The translations under genes were made by a program, and so were the position numbers. DNA of 64,000 nt, taken from sequence record NC_024125.2; one strand, written 5' to 3'. This stretch comes from Escherichia phage vB_EcoM_112. The notes under the pieces were generated by a model that did not search any database, had not been told where the DNA came from, and saw only the letters and a list, made by a program, of their open reading frames with translations. Each line of letters opens with the position of its first letter. The stretch's first letter is position 1. This document shows positions 10,068 to 53,966 of the stretch, piece after piece.

Positions 10068-11387
10068 TCATACATAAAATACATCATAACGACCACGGGT
10101 AACACCAACATAAAGAAGTTGTTGGGCCAATTCAGCATCTGCATAATGAATACAAGGCGTATAGATGAAAGCACGGTCTACAGACATACCCTGAGCTTTA
10201 TGGAATGTTGACGCAGGAAGTGCTTTCACTTTACTAAACTGTGATTTAGCATCCCAAAAATCACTCCACGGGGCTTTTCCGCCTTTATTCCAATTTTTAT
10301 AAGTTTCTGCTGTTTTACCTAAAAATAAGTTAAACTTATATAGCTCTTCATCAGATGAAATTATTTTAATCTTTTCACGATAATATTCATCATCGCCGTA
10401 AGTTTCTACTGTTAAATCCCAATGACGAATTAAGTATTCTCCAGAAACACCACGAGCTTTAACAAAGGTTGATGTATACTCTGCTTCTATAATACGAACT
10501 AATTGTCCGTTATTAAAAATAATTTCTGACACAGGCTTTCCATCAATTTTATATGTTTTAATTAATGGTTCCTGCATTACAATAATTTCACCGACAATAA
10601 AATCTTTATCAGTTTCAAAAATCTTTTTACGAATAATGCTATTTAACTTGTCAACAGATTTATTCGTAAATGCCATTACGCGATTTTCAAACAAATCATC
10701 TAGTGATTTGACGATTGAAAAATAATTTACCATAAAATCGCGTAAAGCGGTATCACCAGTAAATCCACGTACTCCATGCCCGTCAACAACTTTATCATAA
10801 ATCCACTTACCGTTACGAACGTCAGTAGCTACATCAATAATAGGAGCATTACTGCGTTTAACTTCAGTGAGTTCACACTGATAAAAATCTTTGTGTGTAA
10901 AGAATGGACTGATATAAGCAGTGTTTTCTCCTGGGTCAACAGGTCTAATCTGCTTATTATCACCTATTCCAATTATAGTACACCACGGCGGGATAGTTGA
11001 AAGCAGAATTTTAAATAGCTTTCTATCATACATTGACACTTCGTCGCAGATTAATACTCTGCATTTAGCTAAATCCGGTACTTCTTTTTGTTCAAAAAGA
11101 ACGTTTTCTTCATATGTTACTGGGTTAATTTTAAGAATGCTATGAATAGTACTTGCTTCTTTCCCTGATAGTTTTGAAAGAATCTTTTTAGCCGCATGAG
11201 TAGGAGCTGCTAAAATAATACCAGTTTCACCCGTAGATATTAAAGCTTCAATGATGAACTTAGTAAGAGTAGTCTTACCGGTACCAGCAGGTCCATTAAT
11301 AGTTACATGATGTTTCTTTTCTTTAATAGCCTTCATAACAATGTTAAAGGCATTTTTCTGGCCTTCGGTCAAATCATCAAATGTCAT
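10068..11387 (-). CDS. dda: Dda 5'-3' DNA helicase (SF1B), 439 aa
   Basis: Walker A GPAGTGKT; length and N-terminus MTFDDLTEGQKNAF. Confidence 0.9.
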   Translation of the reverse strand: MTFDDLTEGQKNAFNIVMKAIKEKKHHVTINGPAGTGKTTLTKFIIEALISTGETGIILAAPTHAAKKILSKLSGKEASTIHSILKINPVTYEENVLFEQKEVPDLAKCRVLICDEVSMYDRKLFKILLSTIPPWCTIIGIGDNKQIRPVDPGENTAYISPFFTHKDFYQCELTEVKRSNAPIIDVATDVRNGKWIYDKVVDGHGVRGFTGDTALRDFMVNYFSIVKSLDDLFENRVMAFTNKSVDKLNSIIRKKIFETDKDFIVGEIIVMQEPLIKTYKIDGKPVSEIIFNNGQLVRIIEAEYTSTFVKARGVSGEYLIRHWDLTVETYGDDEYYREKIKIISSDEELYKFNLFLGKTAETYKNWNKGGKAPWSDFWDAKSQFSKVKALPASTFHKAQGMSVDRAFIYTPCIHYADAELAQQLLYVGVTRGRYDVFYV

Positions 11388-46276: not shown

Positions 46277-46398
46277 GTCCCATCTCCATATCAATTAAGT
46301 CATTTATCGTTGGTTCATTATACACCGTTTCTTCATCAGTGTAAATCGGTTCTTCCGGCTCTGGCTCTACAGTTTCCCATCTAGCCGCCCACCAAGGT

Positions 46399-46569
46399 TT
46401 AACCCCGAAGCTTATTAAGTTCTTCATAATCAATCCAGGATTCTAATCCTGATGGTAGGTCACATTCAATTTCCCAAAGAAGTTCTTCAATTTTATGAAG
46501 ACGATCTAATTCTTCAACAGGAATAGTAACCATTGATGGAGCTCTTGCTGCACTAATATCGTATATCAT
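46399..46569 (-). CDS. hypothetical protein, about 56 aa
   Basis: ATG at 46567-46569 after upstream stop. Confidence 0.4.
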   Translation of the reverse strand: MIYDISAARAPSMVTIPVEELDRLHKIEELLWEIECDLPSGLESWIDYEELNKLRG

Positions 46570-46571
46570 AT

Positions 46572-46787
46572 TTACCCCAGTTTGACCATGCAATCGCCGT
46601 ATTTCCACTTAGAAATAGACTTTTCACCATTAGAATAATAAACTTCGAGTTTAGCGCGATTATTTTTAATTTGAATAACCTTGGCTGTCATCAAAGTTCC
46701 ATACCCATAATAAACTGCAACCTCATCACCTACATATACCGCGCTTCCGCGGTAATCGTGAATATAGTCAGTTCCTTCAAGCATCAT
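46572..46787 (-). CDS. hypothetical protein, 71 aa
   Basis: ORF track; overlaps nrdC start. Confidence 0.5.
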   Translation of the reverse strand: MMLEGTDYIHDYRGSAVYVGDEVAVYYGYGTLMTAKVIQIKNNRAKLEVYYSNGEKSISKWKYGDCMVKLG

Positions 46788-47047
46788 TTAAAATATTCTC
46801 GCAATTGGTCAAATCCACCAATATGACTTCCATCAGGAGCAAATACCTGAGGCATTGTCAAGCCAATTTGAATATCACGACCTAGTTTAGTCAGAAGCTC
46901 AGCAATTTTCTCATCATCAAAAACACCTTTTTCCGGCATAATGTTGATAAATTCAAACGGCTGTTTCTTCACAGTCAAAAGACGTTTTGCATTATCGCAA
47001 TACACACATTTATGGATGTTGCTATCATAACCATATACTTTAAACAT
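46784..47047 (-). CDS. nrdC: glutaredoxin/thioredoxin NrdC, 87 aa
   Basis: CVYC active site; length. Confidence 0.9.
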   Translation of the reverse strand: MFKVYGYDSNIHKCVYCDNAKRLLTVKKQPFEFINIMPEKGVFDDEKIAELLTKLGRDIQIGLTMPQVFAPDGSHIGGFDQLREYFK

Positions 47048-47048
47048 A

Positions 47049-47291
47049 TTATTCCTTAATTCCTAGTACTTGTTTAAAAGTCTCGTCGTAATCAAGACTT
47101 TGGCCCGTTTGTTCTTTATGTTTGTATATAATATCACTTACTTCTGATAGCATATTTTTATATGAACGAGTTAAAGCTGATTTAAGCACGCTGTATCTAT
47201 CAGGAAATTTACCATGTTCATTATAATAAGCTATTGCTAATTCACGGACTGCCTTTTCAGCAGTCTCCATATATTCTTTACGCTTGGTCAT
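47049..47291 (-). CDS. hypothetical protein, about 80 aa
   Basis: ATG at 47289-47291. Confidence 0.45.
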
Positions 47292-47592
47292 TTTCTTCTC
47301 GGTCAAATCGGTGTTTACAATGGCGACATTTATAACGAAGATTACTAGTCTGCCAATGGACCAATTGCACCTGTTCAGTTCCACATTCAGGGCAATTAGG
47401 AACGTTTTTAGAAGCCCTTTCACGACGTTCAACCATGACCATTACAGAATCCCAATTAATAGGAGGGCTATAATCATCACAACCATGAATCTTTCCACGC
47501 ATTTCCAAATCGTCTTCTTCACCAGCCATAATAATTTTAATTAGACTAGAATTACTTGAAGCTGCAATGTCTTCTAATAGACGCTTTTTCAT
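47278..47592 (-). CDS. zinc-ribbon protein, 104 aa
   Basis: CPECG...CRHCKH. Confidence 0.55.
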
Positions 47593-48518
47593 TTCAATAC
47601 CTCAATAGCATTACGTAAACCATTTGCTTTTGCATTAAGAGCTTTTAACAATTTGGTGTGTTCTGCAATTTGGGCTTCAACTTCAATCAAACGAGCATTG
47701 AGATATTCGCGTTCTTCACTCAGATTATCAACCTTTTCTACTTTAGGCTCTTTTACAACTGTCTTATATGTATTAGGGTTCTTCAGTTTAATTAGAATGC
47801 GTGAACTGTATAACATTGAACCATTATTTTCGGTTTCGTCATACATTTCTACTACATCCATAATTTTTAACATCATGCGGAGTTTATAAGACAACGAACG
47901 AATAGTTTTGTTGTGCTTATTAATTTCTTTAGCTGTCATGGTGCCGAGATTACGTGAGTAATAATAAGGAACCTGGATATTAATTAATACTGATGAACCA
48001 CCTGGCTTGTGTGTTACTTCATCAGCAATAACCCAGTCCTTAACATGAACTGTATTTGTACGGTCATCACCCGCGGTAAACAGTTTGCGAGCATGCTTAA
48101 AAAGCATATTCACTTGGTCATTGAATTGACAAGCAAATTTATCAGCAAATTTAGTTTCAGGAATGGTAGATAACCAATCAGCCAAATGAGTCTTTTTAAC
48201 ATCGTTAACAATAGTAAATTCAACCAAATCGGTTATAGATGTCTCAGATTTAATAAAGCTCGGCTTCATAAAGTTTTTAATGTTATCGTGAGCTACAGTA
48301 GAAGATAACATACGAGAACGTTTAAACCATTCAAGCAAATTACCTAACGAATGAGAATAAGCGTTTTGAGTATCTTTACAGATATGATTTTCCTGGCCAA
48401 CATATTGAAGGAAATCACGAAGAATATTATTGATTACTGCTCTGTGTCCGATCTGATAATTACGGTGTTTAGTAATAAGACTGTCAAAATAATCAATATA
48501 ATGTTTACGAGTTTTCAT
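47589..48518 (-). CDS. hypothetical protein with C-terminal coiled coil, 309 aa; member of a four-gene tandem family
   Basis: Conserved KPVE-like motif then helical tail. Confidence 0.6.
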   Translation of the reverse strand: MKTRKHYIDYFDSLITKHRNYQIGHRAVINNILRDFLQYVGQENHICKDTQNAYSHSLGNLLEWFKRSRMLSSTVAHDNIKNFMKPSFIKSETSITDLVEFTIVNDVKKTHLADWLSTIPETKFADKFACQFNDQVNMLFKHARKLFTAGDDRTNTVHVKDWVIADEVTHKPGGSSVLINIQVPYYYSRNLGTMTAKEINKHNKTIRSLSYKLRMMLKIMDVVEMYDETENNGSMLYSSRILIKLKNPNTYKTVVKEPKVEKVDNLSEEREYLNARLIEVEAQIAEHTKLLKALNAKANGLRNAIEVLK

Positions 48519-48572
48519 GTTCTTCTCACTTGGTTAATGATTTATACTCCGAGCCATCCTTGGCTTTAAATT

Positions 48573-49574
48573 TTACTTAATTAACTGTAAAGCTTGTTCT
48601 AAACGATCAAGACGATTAACAGATTCTTCCCAAATCCTTTTAGCCTGCTCATATTCTTTCTGCGCTTTATTAGAAATTTCTAGAACTTCTTTATAAGCTT
48701 TTTCTAGTGCAATAACTTCTGGACGAATTTCTACCGGTTCAGGTGAATCATCAAGATTATCCATTAGTTCCTCAAGGGTAGTTTCTTCTTTAGGAGTATT
48801 CACAATTTCATCACATTTTTGCTGGTAAATTTCTTTATCAGTCGGTGAGTACGCACACTTTACTTCACGAAGACTAATTACAATTTTATATCCTTCCCAT
48901 CCGCATATATTCTTAAAAGGATATGTATGAATACTTTTTACAGTTTCCATACAGCCCAAAGCCGTCTCTAATTGATGAGTTATAGTGCTAGCAATTGAGA
49001 AAAATTTATTAATGTTCTTTTGATTAGCTGCTGGTGTAAAAAATCCATAATTCACAAAAATAGCTACTTTATTTTTATCAAGCTCATATTCTTTTACGAT
49101 AATCATATCAGAAGCCAAAGGATGAATTTGACGATAATCGCCATAACATAATTTAGAAGCTGATTTTAGAATTTGTCCTTTGAAAAGTCTGAAATTACTA
49201 ATCCAACGACGAGTAAAAATATTCTCAGGGTCTTCTTTGATATTAAGATGATAAGAATTAACATCACCGAACCAATTATATCCTACTACATCTTTAGTTC
49301 GTTTAATTTCTTTCCCAAAATTACCAAGAATATCCCTATTAACCAAATATGAAAGAAGACGAGACCCTTTAAAGGTTTTCTTAATGGCATCTTTATCTGT
49401 ACGACTAGAAATTTCACGAACTTCATGAATAAATTTGCCGGAAGAAACAATACTTGCATCAATATTATTGAGCCATTGATTGATAATAGAAAGAACGATA
49501 TTTTGACCAAACATCGGTATAGCTTTATCATCAATAACGCTGTTGAACGATTTAATATATTCGTTGCGAGTCAT
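48573..49574 (-). CDS. hypothetical protein with C-terminal coiled coil, about 333 aa
   Basis: ATG at 49572-49574 with GAGGAG RBS; tracked start overlaps promoter -10. Confidence 0.6.
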   Translation of the reverse strand: MTRNEYIKSFNSVIDDKAIPMFGQNIVLSIINQWLNNIDASIVSSGKFIHEVREISSRTDKDAIKKTFKGSRLLSYLVNRDILGNFGKEIKRTKDVVGYNWFGDVNSYHLNIKEDPENIFTRRWISNFRLFKGQILKSASKLCYGDYRQIHPLASDMIIVKEYELDKNKVAIFVNYGFFTPAANQKNINKFFSIASTITHQLETALGCMETVKSIHTYPFKNICGWEGYKIVISLREVKCAYSPTDKEIYQQKCDEIVNTPKEETTLEELMDNLDDSPEPVEIRPEVIALEKAYKEVLEISNKAQKEYEQAKRIWEESVNRLDRLEQALQLIK

Positions 49575-49602
49575 ATTAATCTCCTCAGTAGAAAGTAAGA
49601 AC

Positions 49603-49632
49603 ATTATACCACATCCTTGTGGCGAAGTAAAC
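49603..49632 (-). promoter_or_regulatory. T4-type early promoter (GTTTAC-N18-TATAAT)
   Basis: Plus gtaaac 49627-49632, attata 49603-49608. Confidence 0.6.
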
Positions 49633-50639
49633 TAGTTTAGTGCATTTAGTGCGTTGTTCAGTTTAGAACGTTGCTTCGTGAGATTTTTGACTTTTTCTAG
49701 CATCTTTTCAGCTTCTAACACTTCATTGGTCGCTTTAACGAGTTCATCATCTACTGCCTTGATAGACTTCTCAATCGCATCCGCGTGCCATTTTTCAACA
49801 GGTTTAAGACTCGGATTTTCAATAGGAAGAAAATTCGCTTTATTAAATTTCCATGCATCTTTATTACCTGAGCTATACATCCAAAATTTAGGATCGTTTG
49901 ATGAGCAATTAGATAAATTTAAGTTATCTTGCACTTCCTGCTTTTTCTCTTGCGTGACTTCGTCTTTTCTCAAAAAATCATATTTAAATGAAACGATCAT
50001 ATCAAGTTCATATGTTGTTGTATGTTCCCAATTTCGCTCAAAACGAGGTAAAATCTTAGACTGAACAGCGGCAACAACATCCATATACTTAAATGCTTCT
50101 GTCAACTGTGATTTAAGGCATTCACAAATTGAAAGAGAATTTTTTGTATTAGGTTTAAAGCTAATTCGTGCAGTTCTATTATTTTCTTTTAACGGTCTTA
50201 CTTCCATCTGAAGAGTATAACCATCAAATTTCAGATTCTTTAAGTTAATATCAGAACCTTTTAATCGACTAGCAGTAGACAAAATTTGCTTTAATTGTTT
50301 ACGAAATAGAGCAATAAATCTCCATTCAATACGATAATGATTTGGATTAAAAAATCCTGTTGATAAATCAACCTTACTCTGACCAACGCCTTGAACAAAT
50401 AGAGGATTTTTATAATCAATAGTTTTACAGAAATCGGTGAGCTGCTCACGAGCAGTCATTTGTGTAATATATCCCGCTTTACTAAAATGACGTAACCATT
50501 CACTGCTATTCATATACTTAAAGTGAATATCACGATTAACTTTATCAGGGTCTAAATTATTTTGGCACAAAAATGTCATAACATTACGGGTATAGCTGGC
50601 ATTACGAACCATATCTTCAATTTGAGAACGAGTTTTCAT
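49632..50639 (-). CDS. hypothetical protein with C-terminal coiled coil, 335 aa
   Basis: ATG at 50637-50639. Confidence 0.6.
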   Translation of the reverse strand: MKTRSQIEDMVRNASYTRNVMTFLCQNNLDPDKVNRDIHFKYMNSSEWLRHFSKAGYITQMTAREQLTDFCKTIDYKNPLFVQGVGQSKVDLSTGFFNPNHYRIEWRFIALFRKQLKQILSTASRLKGSDINLKNLKFDGYTLQMEVRPLKENNRTARISFKPNTKNSLSICECLKSQLTEAFKYMDVVAAVQSKILPRFERNWEHTTTYELDMIVSFKYDFLRKDEVTQEKKQEVQDNLNLSNCSSNDPKFWMYSSGNKDAWKFNKANFLPIENPSLKPVEKWHADAIEKSIKAVDDELVKATNEVLEAEKMLEKVKNLTKQRSKLNNALNALN

Positions 50640-50647
50640 GGTGTTCC

Positions 50648-51535
50648 TTAAGATTTAAGTAAATCAACAATTTTAATTAATTTTTCACGCTCAGATTTAG
50701 CTTTACTACTCAATCCAGATAGTCTGAAAATTTCATCGTCATACTGTTGAATAGAAATATTCAGCTCTTCAATTTGCTTATTAAAATAATCAATTTGCTC
50801 AGAATGTTTTTCATTACTGCGAACTGGTACAGGTTTTGTAGGCAATTTAGTTAAACTGGATTCATCCGGGCGATAAATTAAAATACAACTTGAACCAATC
50901 GGGCATTTAGCACCAGACACATATTCTAATGTTCCGGCTTCTTTTAAAACTTCAAAAGCTAAACAGAGATGATGCCCCATATTAACATAATCTGTAGAGC
51001 GAGCTCTGACGTAATAATCATCGCCGCGAATACTAAATTTAAAGCATTTAAGGTCTTCTGTATTATTGGTCTTAAAAATCATTTGTTTATCTAGACCTTT
51101 AGCTAATCTAGCGCCTAATGCTAATAATCGTCGTTGATTTTCCCACAAATCCGCAATCATTTGATCGAATGACAATTTCGGCATTAGTCGGCCATAAAGG
51201 TCATATCCTTTATTATAATTACGAAGGATTTCACTCGCGTTAATACGAGACAATGCTCCAATTTTATTAAGGGCTTTCATGATGCGATTAGATAAACCCA
51301 TTCCAGACCCGTTTGTTCGTTGTAAATGTTTATCTAATCCAAACCCAATATCAACTTTAAATTTATCTAAAATTTCAGCATGAACATCTCTGTCAATAAC
51401 ATTCAAATCCAAAGTTGGGTTAAATCTATGAAAAAATTTATCTGGCTCTCCACGACGAAGTACAGTCCATTCATTTAATTTTTTATTAACTAAAGATTTA
51501 ATTACTGTATTGACATTATTAATTACTACTGACAT
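50648..51535 (-). CDS. hypothetical protein with C-terminal coiled coil, about 295 aa
   Basis: ATG at 51533-51535 (tracked start TTG). Confidence 0.55.
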   Translation of the reverse strand: MSVVINNVNTVIKSLVNKKLNEWTVLRRGEPDKFFHRFNPTLDLNVIDRDVHAEILDKFKVDIGFGLDKHLQRTNGSGMGLSNRIMKALNKIGALSRINASEILRNYNKGYDLYGRLMPKLSFDQMIADLWENQRRLLALGARLAKGLDKQMIFKTNNTEDLKCFKFSIRGDDYYVRARSTDYVNMGHHLCLAFEVLKEAGTLEYVSGAKCPIGSSCILIYRPDESSLTKLPTKPVPVRSNEKHSEQIDYFNKQIEELNISIQQYDDEIFRLSGLSSKAKSEREKLIKIVDLLKS

Positions 51536-51546
51536 ATTTTTCTCAC

Positions 51547-51951
51547 TCAATTTTCAATTTTACTAAATACACAGAATATGATGGAAAAGACTATATAAGC
51601 ACCGCATACAGATTGAACTAATACCATTCCAAAGAACCAAACAATATTATCAAACAATGTCTGTTTTACGTCGAAAGGACGTAAACTTACAGTAATATTA
51701 TCACCTTTTTCTATTGAAGAATACATCTCTGGTGAAATATATTCGCTAAATCTATAACCGTCATTTAGTTCATATACGGCAATAAACGATAAACTAGACC
51801 CCTTTCCTTGTGTTCCTGTAAAGGTATTAACTATAGTAACATCATAATCTTTATAATGCATATAATCATTAATTGCGTAATAACCATATGCAATTACTAT
51901 ACATAAACAACATATCAATAAATTCAATCTTTTAATTATCAACTGTTTCAT
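51547..51951 (-). CDS. membrane protein, 134 aa
   Basis: Hydrophobic segments at both ends. Confidence 0.55.
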   Translation of the reverse strand: MKQLIIKRLNLLICCLCIVIAYGYYAINDYMHYKDYDVTIVNTFTGTQGKGSSLSFIAVYELNDGYRFSEYISPEMYSSIEKGDNITVSLRPFDVKQTLFDNIVWFFGMVLVQSVCGAYIVFSIIFCVFSKIEN

Positions 51952-52006: not shown

Positions 52007-52534
52007 TTATGCGAGTACCGTCTTTAACCGTTCTTCAAATTTCCGAAGAGTGTTCTGGCGTTCAGCTCTTTGCTTTTTGTAAGTTTCAATACGCTCTGAA
52101 ATGAGATTGTATCGTTCATTTACTGATTCTTTCATAAAATCAGGAATTTCACGAGAAGCTTTAATCTCGTCAAATTTATCAATAACAGCTTGCTCTTCAG
52201 CAATTAAGTTATCATACATCAAAATATCTTTCTTGATGAACTCAATATCTTCTTGAGTTACACGAGATAATTTAGATGCTTTATCCTTTTTGTACTGTTC
52301 GTTAGTATCACGAGACCAGTGTAATGTACGATTTTTATTCGTATTTTTGTAAATTTCTACAATACCAATCTCATCGATAATAACGATCCAATTCCAACGA
52401 GATTTGTAAATTTGTCCTCCATCAACCGTGATTTCACCTCCAATTGAGATGTCATTAAAGAACTTGCTTTGAGCTTCAGATTTAAATTTACCATCATTGT
52501 AGTTTACCAAGTTGAAAATATCTTTAGCATTCAT
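52007..52534 (-). CDS. hypothetical protein, about 175 aa
   Basis: ATG at 52532-52534 with GGAGG RBS; tracked N-terminus is translated promoter/leader. Confidence 0.55.
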   Translation of the reverse strand: MNAKDIFNLVNYNDGKFKSEAQSKFFNDISIGGEITVDGGQIYKSRWNWIVIIDEIGIVEIYKNTNKNRTLHWSRDTNEQYKKDKASKLSRVTQEDIEFIKKDILMYDNLIAEEQAVIDKFDEIKASREIPDFMKESVNERYNLISERIETYKKQRAERQNTLRKFEERLKTVLA

Positions 52535-52997: not shown

Positions 52998-53966
52998 TTA
53001 TTTCAGAAGAGTAACCTCAGCAATTTCTCCCCAACCATTTTTGTCGGTCATAATAAAGTCAGCAAGATAAAGAGCAGTACGCAGTGAAACATTGCGTAAA
53101 CGATTAACATTGACTTTCATCCATGATAATGCTTTATAAGTTTCTTCATCAGAAAGACCACGCTTTTGCATCATGTCGGTTGAAAGAATAACATCTTCAA
53201 CCCTGACCATAATTTCTTCATTAGTGTGAACACCCAAATCTAAATAAACTGAGCGGGAAACTAATGCTTGTAAATGTGGAGCAAGTTTAGTACCACGGTC
53301 TAATTCGCGGTCAATGTCAACGTTTGTGATAAAAACAATCGTTCCTTTAAATTCAAACTCACGCTCAATGCCTTTTTCTTCTAAGTAAGAAGATGCGGTA
53401 CTCCAGCAGACTTTACGGGTCTCTCCAGTGTCCAGAGCAGCTTTCAGAAGATTAAGAATGTCCATATCAGAGAAAACATCCACATCATCAATCAAAAGGA
53501 CAGAATTCTCTTCACGATTATTCCAAAGCTGCTCATAAAGACCAATACCAGAGATTTTACCGTTAATGCTTTTATATTCAATGTATCCATTATCATTTGC
53601 TTTATTTAAAGCTTTATCTAAAGAATACGTTTTACCAATACCTGCTGCACCAGAGATAATTAATGAACGAATGTTTCCGTTAATAATACCATTCGTCATC
53701 ATTCCCATAACATTAAATCTTTTATTAATGCGGGTTTTCATATCTTCATATGATTCTTTAACTTCTTCAACTTTTACACCATCATATGAAATGTCTGATT
53801 TGTAAACCCAAACACCGCGACGTTTACCGTCAATTTCAACAAAAACTTTACCATCTCCTTGTGCATCTACCGGAGCATTATCTGGGAACCATTCGCCTAA
53901 GAGCTCAAAAGTTCCAGAGATTTCTTTACCGAAGTAGATACCCTTATTGATAGTTACAGTTTTCAT
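52998..53966 (-). CDS. P-loop ATPase (AAA-like), about 322 aa
   Basis: Walker A GAAGIGKT, Walker B LLIDDVD; ATG at 53964-53966. Confidence 0.65.
   Translation of the reverse strand: MKTVTINKGIYFGKEISGTFELLGEWFPDNAPVDAQGDGKVFVEIDGKRRGVWVYKSDISYDGVKVEEVKESYEDMKTRINKRFNVMGMMTNGIINGNIRSLIISGAAGIGKTYSLDKALNKANDNGYIEYKSINGKISGIGLYEQLWNNREENSVLLIDDVDVFSDMDILNLLKAALDTGETRKVCWSTASSYLEEKGIEREFEFKGTIVFITNVDIDRELDRGTKLAPHLQALVSRSVYLDLGVHTNEEIMVRVEDVILSTDMMQKRGLSDEETYKALSWMKVNVNRLRNVSLRTALYLADFIMTDKNGWGEIAEVTLLK

Follow-up and report, generated by a model that had tools for sequence, protein, structure and literature searches.

We describe a tandem gene family in a 64,000-nucleotide stretch of the genome of Escherichia phage vB_EcoM_112 (sequence record NC_024125.2), referred to here as the window and used for all coordinates given without another source. 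Four consecutive minus-strand open reading frames (ORFs) at 47589-51535 are the orthologues, in a Tequatrovirus, of phage T4 nrdC.3, nrdC.4, nrdC.5 and nrdC.6, and our analyses identify them as ancient tandem paralogs, certainly in the case of nrdC.3 and nrdC.4, probably in the case of nrdC.5 and, on the combined evidence, probably also in the case of nrdC.6. All genes in this part of the window lie on the minus strand, and the 5 kb around the array is 96-97% identical in DNA to hundreds of Tequatrovirus genomes, with the same gene order as T4. Many GenBank records call the whole nrdC.3-nrdC.6 block 'thioredoxin', a label that is annotation spill-over from nrdC. The array comprises the following features:

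47589-48518, minus strand: nrdC.3 orthologue, 309 amino acids, start MKTRKHY, PF26897 / phrog_1435, a mosaic allele
47592-47723, minus strand: C-terminal heptad helix of nrdC.3, residues 266-309
48573-49574, minus strand: nrdC.4 orthologue, 333 amino acids, start MTRNEY, PF26897 / phrog_1435
48576-48722, minus strand: C-terminal helix of nrdC.4, residues 285-333, ending RLEQALQLIK
49603-49631, minus strand: promoter-like site after the stop codon of nrdC.5 and ahead of the ATG of nrdC.4 (TTTACT, 17-nucleotide spacer, TATAAT, with TG), a consensus match only
49632-50639, minus strand: nrdC.5 orthologue, 335 amino acids, start MKTRSQI, PF23882 (DUF7235) / phrog_2351
49635-49802, minus strand: C-terminal helix of nrdC.5, residues 280-335, ending KLNNALNALN (ALK in most relatives)
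50648-51535, minus strand: nrdC.6 orthologue, 295 amino acids, PF26899 / phrog_2257, intact
50651-50815, minus strand: C-terminal helix of nrdC.6, residues 241-295, ending KLIKIVDLLKS

A sequence-only reading of this DNA had already delimited the four ORFs, and the coordinates, lengths and peptides that it quoted are all correct, as is its observation that two of them (nrdC.3 and nrdC.5) begin with MKTR. For nrdC.4 an alternative start at 49604 would yield 343 amino acids and overlaps the promoter-like site (49631-49603); the 333-residue form is preferred because the MTRNEY start (ATG at 49574) is common to all nrdC.4 homologues and because the promoter-like site covers the upstream extension. 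A promoter and terminator scan returned total counts that were not above those of shuffled sequences.

Pfam and PHROGs split the four proteins into three families, PF26897/phrog_1435, PF23882/phrog_2351 and PF26899/phrog_2257. The first unites nrdC.3 and nrdC.4, which match phrog_1435 with E=1.6e-116 and E=3.9e-168, respectively, and a precomputed PF26897 assignment is carried by all nrdC.4 homologues. The second holds nrdC.5, which matches PF23882 (DUF7235) over protein residues 1-335 (E=1.9e-122; 408.9 bits for a cut-off of 30) and phrog_2351 with E=1.2e-167; in the Pfam scan none of the other three proteins matched PF23882. The third holds nrdC.6, with a match to phrog_2257 (E=4.2e-152) and a precomputed PF26899 assignment on 105 of 105 homologues.

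The sequence-only reading had proposed a tandem paralog family with divergent middle regions. Evidence from BLASTP, hhalign and Foldseek sustains the family; the divergence of the middle regions is real at the level of sequence and does not amount to unrelatedness, since nrdC.3 and nrdC.4 are alignable over approximately 220 N-terminal residues (BLASTP E=1e-6, 24% identity; hhalign probability 97.5%). When hhalign was run with shallow alignments containing close Tequatrovirus homologues only, almost nothing was returned for nrdC.5 or nrdC.6. Profiles were rebuilt with the syntenic genes from Mosigvirus, Dhakavirus and Gaprivervirus, and with these the nrdC.3/4 and nrdC.5 families were aligned with a probability of 87% (E=3.9e-6) over 275 collinear columns, starting at residue 36/27 and reaching the C-terminal residue in each. 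Islands common to the two profiles are FK-x-SR-LLS-x-LV-x-D-L-x-FG~, W-x-x-F-x-x-x-x-x-IL-x-SA-x-KL, M-[DE]-[TV]-V and the C-terminal tail. The match between the nrdC.5 and nrdC.6 profiles is weak (P=0.011) yet collinear, and includes one island that we judged convincing ('FSKAGYITQMTAREQLTDFCKTIDY' in comparison with 'LNKIGALSRINASEILRNYNKGYDL'), while a merged nrdC.3/4/5 profile aligned with nrdC.6 from end to end at P=0.002-0.003, compared with 0.16-0.47 for reversed-sequence controls. Collinear homology was thus found overall across the proposed NrdC.3-6 superfamily, least securely for nrdC.6, whose probable membership rests on a Foldseek match to the nrdC.4 model (described below), weak collinear motifs, a shared linker and synteny. 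At the DNA level, comparison of the four genes revealed repeats that were short chance matches only; the duplications are therefore old, with no recent duplication or gene conversion. The family is confined to Straboviridae.

Each of the four proteins ends, as the sequence-only reading had noted, in a proline motif followed by a heptad-rich helix. The proline-containing hinges are conserved inside each family (KEPKVEKV in nrdC.3, SPEPVEIRPEV in nrdC.4, SLKPVEKW in nrdC.5 and PTKPVPVRS in nrdC.6), and the acidic helix that precedes the hinge is common across families, with 'EDKLQELIDNLESGFDQPV' of Mosigvirus nrdC.6 lying close to 'ETTLEELMDNLDDSPEPV' of nrdC.4. Within the terminal helix, the hydrophobic fraction is 0.69-0.86 at heptad a/d positions and 0.18-0.31 elsewhere, and comparison with shuffles gave significant heptad periodicity for nrdC.3 (p=0.0065), nrdC.4 (p=0.0005) and nrdC.6 (p<0.0005), with nrdC.5 borderline (p=0.05). 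The helix closes on an end motif, [KRN]-L-x-x-[AIV]-[LIVM]-x-[LAV]-L-K, which has one extra residue in nrdC.6 and is visible in every genus examined.

The sequence-only reading had itself raised the concern that such C-terminal similarity might reflect low-complexity coiled-coil bias with no shared motif. Key to resolving this was an ungapped profile-profile alignment of the last 21 columns of each family in which every offset was scored. The end-to-end register ranked first of 274-315 offsets in all six family pairs (z 3.2-4.8), above registers shifted by 7 or 14 residues, whereas the coiled-coil tail of the neighbouring gene nrdC.8, used as a control, ranked 20-65 in the same test. Furthermore, when each tail profile was compared with the C-termini of 99 window ORFs of at least 80 amino acids, the other three paralogs were placed in the top six, with a few unrelated helical ends scoring close behind. 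The tail similarity is a specific motif and not a matter of coiled-coil composition.

In all four families the tail is more conserved than the body, which upholds the earlier suggestion of a shared and unusually conserved C-terminal module. Identities among nrdC.4 homologues are 27-50% in the body and 75-80% in the last 20 residues; the corresponding values for body and tail are 29-42% and 56-71% in nrdC.6, 22-27% and 37-41% in nrdC.5, and 61% and 80% for window nrdC.3 compared with T4. The ...L-x-L-L-K end might also be a ClpX-tethering peptide of the SspB kind, an idea of low probability that belongs with the more elaborate scheme considered below; the motif here lies inside a long helix.

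Predicted structures point to a build common to all four proteins: an N-terminal helical bundle, an α/β sandwich, a variable linker rich in proline and acidic residues, and an amphipathic heptad helix of 45-55 residues. An AlphaFold2 model of nrdC.4 from a 36-sequence alignment (predicted local distance difference test score, pLDDT, 83.3; predicted template modelling score 0.66) places six short helices at residues 1-84 ahead of a sandwich at 88-235, in which three strands (88-110) lead into a long helix (119-140), a hairpin (158-174), a second long helix (185-208) and a further hairpin (212-235). Residues 236-284 form a linker of low confidence, and the model closes with a single long helix at 285-332. 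The nrdC.5 model, the quality of which is considered further below, has its secondary-structure elements in the nrdC.4 order and a predicted terminal helix at 280-334, so that the helical tail which the sequence-only reading had put forward for structure prediction is recovered in both models.

Foldseek comparison of the nrdC.4 model with predicted viral structures (BFVD) returned, at probability 1.0, a set of uncharacterised proteins of 280-374 residues from T4-like phages of Enterobacter, Pectobacterium, Yersinia, Acinetobacter, Klebsiella, Erwinia and Serratia. Among them is the 'nrdC.6' of phage JS10 (E=1.8e-4, probability 1.0, 351 aligned columns). Among the best matches of the nrdC.5 model are four of the nrdC.4 neighbours (Erwinia phage Cronus, Klebsiella phage KPV15, Serratia phage PS2 and Pectobacterium phage PM2), an output that was taken as weak corroboration only. 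Two of the structural relatives, those of Acinetobacter phage Acj61 (330 and 304 amino acids), stand in tandem between nrdC and nrdC.10, as in the window, and end in '...TLNKALEIMML' and '...ILAKALVVSEARLNKK'; the helix ends are similar and the motif is looser. Searches beyond this group were unproductive: PDB-wide sequence-profile searches with the nrdC.4 and nrdC.5 alignments gave no relevant match at E<=1, NCBIfam and Pfam yielded no useful further match, and weak matches to a tyrosine-recombinase SAM-like domain, PHL and designed helical repeats fell below cut-offs and were dismissed.

These results bear on the view that only nrdC.3 and nrdC.4 are related, the C-terminal likeness of the others being a compositional bias of coiled coils. 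In its favour are the separate families of Pfam and PHROGs, the first shallow-alignment runs, which were negative for nrdC.6, the few unrelated helical C-termini of the window that score almost as high on the tail profiles, and a HMMER search of 1.84 billion representative proteins with the nrdC.3/4 profile, which retrieved nine representatives, all of that family, with no nrdC.5 or nrdC.6 member and no cellular relatives. We nevertheless consider this view largely refuted and highly improbable, given the end-anchored tail register (first of some 300 offsets in every pair and above the heptad shifts, as the nrdC.8 control is not), the full-length collinear match of nrdC.3/4 to nrdC.5, the Foldseek link between nrdC.4 and NrdC.6 together with the BFVD neighbours shared by the nrdC.4 and nrdC.5 models, and the shared linker motif, identical order of secondary-structure elements and synteny in five genera.

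The term 'diversifying', which the sequence-only reading had applied to the array, is well founded. Between genera, nrdD, endonuclease VII, nrdC and nrdC.10 retain 78-98% identity, whereas the paralogs fall to 42-51% (nrdC.4), 32-48% (nrdC.6) and 22-29% (nrdC.5); nrdC.8 is at 69-84%. The nrdC.3 gene varies even within Tequatrovirus, where it forms allele classes of about 95-100%, 75-78% and 60% identity. The window protein is 100% identical to its counterpart in phage ECML-134 and 61% identical to the T4 copy, in a setting where the flanks are 96-100% identical. It is a mosaic in which residues 1-60 are of T4 type (90-100%), residues 61-260 are of Mosigvirus type (85-95%, compared with 30-65% to T4) and residues 161-180 are hypervariable against everything, which suggests that bodies have been exchanged between genera, between conserved ends.

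Copy number ranges from two to four. Tequatrovirus carries four array members; three are found in Mosigvirus LF82-33 (nrdC.6, nrdC.5-like and nrdC.3-like), Dhakavirus JS98 (nrdC.6, orf86 and nrdC.4) and Gaprivervirus P896, and two in Mosigvirus ESCO47. Natural deletions within the array join paralogs to one another. One database protein is an in-frame fusion of an nrdC.5 body to an nrdC.3 body and tail, with loss of nrdC.4, and in phage ACG-C40 (4805-5216 of the locus) all that is left between nrdC.6 and nrdC.2 is an nrdC.5 fragment of 71 residues and the final 72 codons of nrdC.3.

A separate observation concerns nrdC.6 of the T4 reference genome (NC_000866), which has a 1-nucleotide deletion (GAGCTGAATATT to GAGCTG-ATATT; about 11100-11120 of the T4 stretch compared, corresponding to window 50730-50760). 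The frameshift sits just inside the tail helix and gives a product of 275 amino acids, and the +1 frame still codes for '...ISIQQYDDEIFRLSGLSSKAKSEREKLIKIVDLLKS'. Since nrdC.6 is intact in the window and is annotated as an 891-nucleotide gene in the T4 stock used for HIDEN-SEQ, the frameshift represents either strain variation or an error in the reference sequence.

As to function, window nrdC.5 is 91.5% identical to T4 NrdC.5, a published anti-Dsr1 factor. An evolved T4 deletion clone fails to plate on Escherichia coli ECOR17 and on an MG1655 derivative with dsr1 from ECOR17 (Srikant et al. 2022, eLife, PMC9391042), and T4 nrdC.5 supplied in trans restores plating of the deletion phage on MG1655 carrying dsr1 (PMC9391042); the host-interaction role that the sequence-only reading had proposed for the array as a whole thus holds for one member. 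Dsr1 is a SIR2 NADase, and the sensor that it has in common with Avs7 detects the major capsid protein of the phage (PMC13581612). On K-12 all four T4 genes are non-essential, with disruption of 91 of 94 TA sites in nrdC.3, 97 of 101 in nrdC.4, 82 of 82 in nrdC.5 and 79 of 82 in nrdC.6 (HIDEN-SEQ preprint, 10.1101/2025.11.20.689424), and Bas37_0198-0201 are likewise non-essential on K-12 (10.1101/2025.11.20.689424).

The array furthermore lies inside an anti-defence island, the T-even pin-nrdC.11 region, because its neighbours inhibit OLD, Septu and Druantia III. T4 gp49.2, encoded a few genes from the array, inhibits OLD (PMC13096335), NrdC.1 inhibits Septu (10.1101/2025.11.20.689424) and bas37_0203 inhibits Druantia III (10.1101/2025.11.20.689424). 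The last of these, at 124393-124920 (528 nucleotides), directly follows a 390-nucleotide nrdC.7 homologue, and its size and position correspond to those of nrdC.8, of which we take it to be the orthologue.

Together these findings make it reasonably likely, in our view, that nrdC.3-nrdC.6 constitute a diversifying family of early, stoichiometric anti-defence proteins with a common tail. The four proteins would be early, dispensable accessory products of the anti-defence island, each most likely binding and neutralising a different host immune protein, which for nrdC.5 would be the SIR2 NADase Dsr1; anti-defence roles for nrdC.3, nrdC.4 and nrdC.6 are inferred. The fast-evolving and recombining body of helical bundle and sandwich may set target specificity, the flexible linker may give reach, and the slow-evolving heptad helix may supply a function common to all copies. 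On the grounds of heptad periodicity and the helix predicted in monomer models, the favoured candidate for that function is coiled-coil oligomerisation, which could let the proteins bind oligomeric defence proteins multivalently. In view of the fixed end motif and of a conservation that is stronger in the tail than in the body, docking to a single conserved partner, or joint assembly of the paralogs, is kept as an alternative role.

Several points weigh against this interpretation. Among the four, the demonstrated phenotype is limited to nrdC.5, and there direct binding to Dsr1 is inferred; in HIDEN-SEQ experiments on clinical isolates, nrdC.3, nrdC.4 and nrdC.6 are not flagged in one comparison (q=1.0), and the main text of the preprint highlights none of the three (10.1101/2025.11.20.689424). 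The sequence link of nrdC.6 is weak when taken alone (P about 0.002-0.06), and the AlphaFold2 model of nrdC.5 is poor (pLDDT 53.9) because of a shallow alignment from a family with almost no diversity. Finally, conservation of the tail above the body would also fit docking in place of oligomerisation.

An alternative is that the proteins serve general host takeover, acting on host metabolism, proteolysis or transcription, and that nrdC.5 would affect Dsr1 by an indirect route. Dsr1 acts through NAD+ depletion, which can be countered indirectly, as by NARP pathways; nucleotide-metabolism genes and pin, which codes for a Lon protease inhibitor, lie in this region as well, and a strongly conserved tail would suit docking on a conserved host machine. 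We regard this alternative as unlikely, however, since the bodies evolve far faster than their neighbours and are swapped between genera, a pattern typical of arms-race targets rather than of a conserved host machine, since the Pfam, PDB, NCBIfam and fold searches found no enzyme-like family or fold match, and since the genes are dispensable on K-12 and several of the genes next to them specifically inhibit defence systems.

On a second alternative, the α/β body would have arisen from a tail-terminator or tail-completion protein of the virion, or would imitate one, and the proteins would serve as early decoys for host sensors of phage structural proteins or as parts of tail assembly. Tail-completion and tail-terminator entries of BFVD are indeed picked up by Foldseek with both the nrdC.4 and nrdC.5 models, weakly (E about 0.01-0.1), and host sensors for tail terminators and capsid proteins exist, Dsr1 sensing the major capsid protein (PMC13581612). 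In the T6 record AP018814.1 (47493-48512) nrdC.5 is annotated as 'tail sheath stabilizer and completion protein', probably a pipeline call, which agrees with these weak fold matches. Nitroreductases and RNA polymerase Rpo11/RPAC2, on the other hand, score about 5.5 and count against a tail-terminator reading of the fold, hhalign gave no sequence signal to T4 gp15, gp19 or gp14 (P>=0.12), and no Pfam tail family was matched at E<=0.1. We therefore take the likeness to be one of fold in the central sandwich and do not count the proteins as members of the tail families. Tail terminators such as lambda gpU, the SPP1 gp17-like proteins and DUF3168 belong moreover to the late virion module and show no sequence similarity, whereas nrdC.3-nrdC.6 are early and non-essential, making an assembly role unlikely, and possess in addition a bundle at the N-terminus, a linker and a helix of 50 residues. 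Dsr1 is known to be triggered by the capsid protein and not by a tail terminator. Overall, we find this alternative quite improbable.

Equally slim are the prospects of a more elaborate scheme in which the heads would be exapted folds of tail-terminator type, acting early as decoys for pattern-recognition sensors, and the helix would bundle two to four heads into a hetero-oligomeric 'immune sponge' or tether them to a conserved partner, e.g. a host AAA+ machine. If this were true, the swapping of heads between conserved N- and C-terminal ends would represent a cassette system for changing specificity. Superinfection exclusion or inter-phage competition, the former also raised by the sequence-only reading, has only early expression, dispensability and variability to recommend it and is very improbable, as the proteins are without membrane segments or nuclease-like features, the sole tested member acts on a host defence system, and the literature searched yielded no exclusion data.

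The anti-defence interpretation can be compared with several known systems. The closest is T4 NrdC.5 (DUF7235) itself, of which the window ORF at 49632-50639 is the orthologue in the same position; nrdC.3, nrdC.4 and nrdC.6 share its domain order and tail motif but lie outside DUF7235, being at most about 20% identical to NrdC.5. DSAD1 of an SPbeta-group phage, which inhibits DSR2, resembles the proposed mode in that a phage protein neutralises a defence-associated sirtuin NADase; PDB-wide profile searches showed no sequence relation of DSAD1 to nrdC.4 or nrdC.5, and phage group, target and size all differ. The T4 internal proteins IPI, IPII and IPIII (and Bas37_0260) follow an analogous logic, forming a diversified anti-defence set with one short conserved terminal module. 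That module, however, serves as an N-terminal capsid-targeting signal and belongs to packaged, injected proteins, whereas the nrdC tail is a long C-terminal heptad helix on early cytoplasmic proteins, and the two sets show no homology. Lastly, gp49.2, NrdC.1 and Bas37_0203 are like the paralogs in their island location, earliness, dispensability and variability between phages, but are much smaller and are not homologous to them.

The genes and the nrdC.5 phenotype were known already; the novelty lies in recognising that three DUF/PHROG families make up a single tandem family of defined modular build, which shares a conserved tail and is represented also in T4-like phages that infect other hosts. 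No mention that nrdC.3-nrdC.6 are related or share a tail was found in the literature searched, and the published work on nrdC.5 describes neither paralogy, architecture nor mechanism (PMC9391042). T4 serves as the reference phage, yet these four genes of approximately 300 codons are still labelled hypothetical or, wrongly, 'thioredoxin'. Our analysis distinguishes the fast-evolving body, a putative specificity domain, from the conserved tail and nominates nrdC.3, nrdC.4 and nrdC.6, with their relatives in Acinetobacter, Klebsiella, Serratia and Erwinia phages, as candidates for defence-system screens. It further contributes to a view in which the pin-nrdC.11 region is an anti-defence island with a part in setting the host range of therapeutic T4-like phages.

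Genes flanking the array in the window are as follows:

47049-47291, minus strand: nrdC.1, 100% identical to T4 NrdC.1
47278-47592, minus strand: nrdC.2, 104 amino acids, with a C-terminal zinc-ribbon signature and several weak zinc-ribbon Pfam matches
51547-51951, minus strand: nrdC.7, a predicted membrane protein that directly follows the array in Tequatrovirus
52007-52534, minus strand: nrdC.8, 175 amino acids, ending in a heptad helix without the family end motif
52998-53966, minus strand: nrdC.10, a P-loop/AAA-type ATPase with weak nSTAND3, AAA_16, AAA_22 and clamp-loader PHROG matches

The nrdC.8 gene was considered as a fifth, truncated member of the family and rejected, there being no hhalign signal and no match to the end motif. 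With identities of 67-100% it is far more conserved than the four paralogs, and it shows no profile similarity to them. A 175-residue protein of phage KPV15, matched in BFVD by both the nrdC.4 and nrdC.5 models, was likewise considered as an nrdC.8 homologue and shows no detectable homology. Mosigvirus has a single nrdC.7 homologue (about 39% identity), which is found beside nrdC, at the opposite flank of the array. Identity of nrdC.10 is about 78% across genera, and the gene is present in Acj61 too.

Between pin and nrdC (46295-46790), the window is without T4 49.1-49.3, the OLD inhibitor 49.2 included. It carries instead small ORFs at 46399-46608 and 46572-46787, which are common to ACG-C40, 310Ecol104PP and Bas39; in ACG-C40, ORF gp193, which overlaps the region matching the window ORF at 46399-46608, is annotated as a toxin-antitoxin antitoxin.

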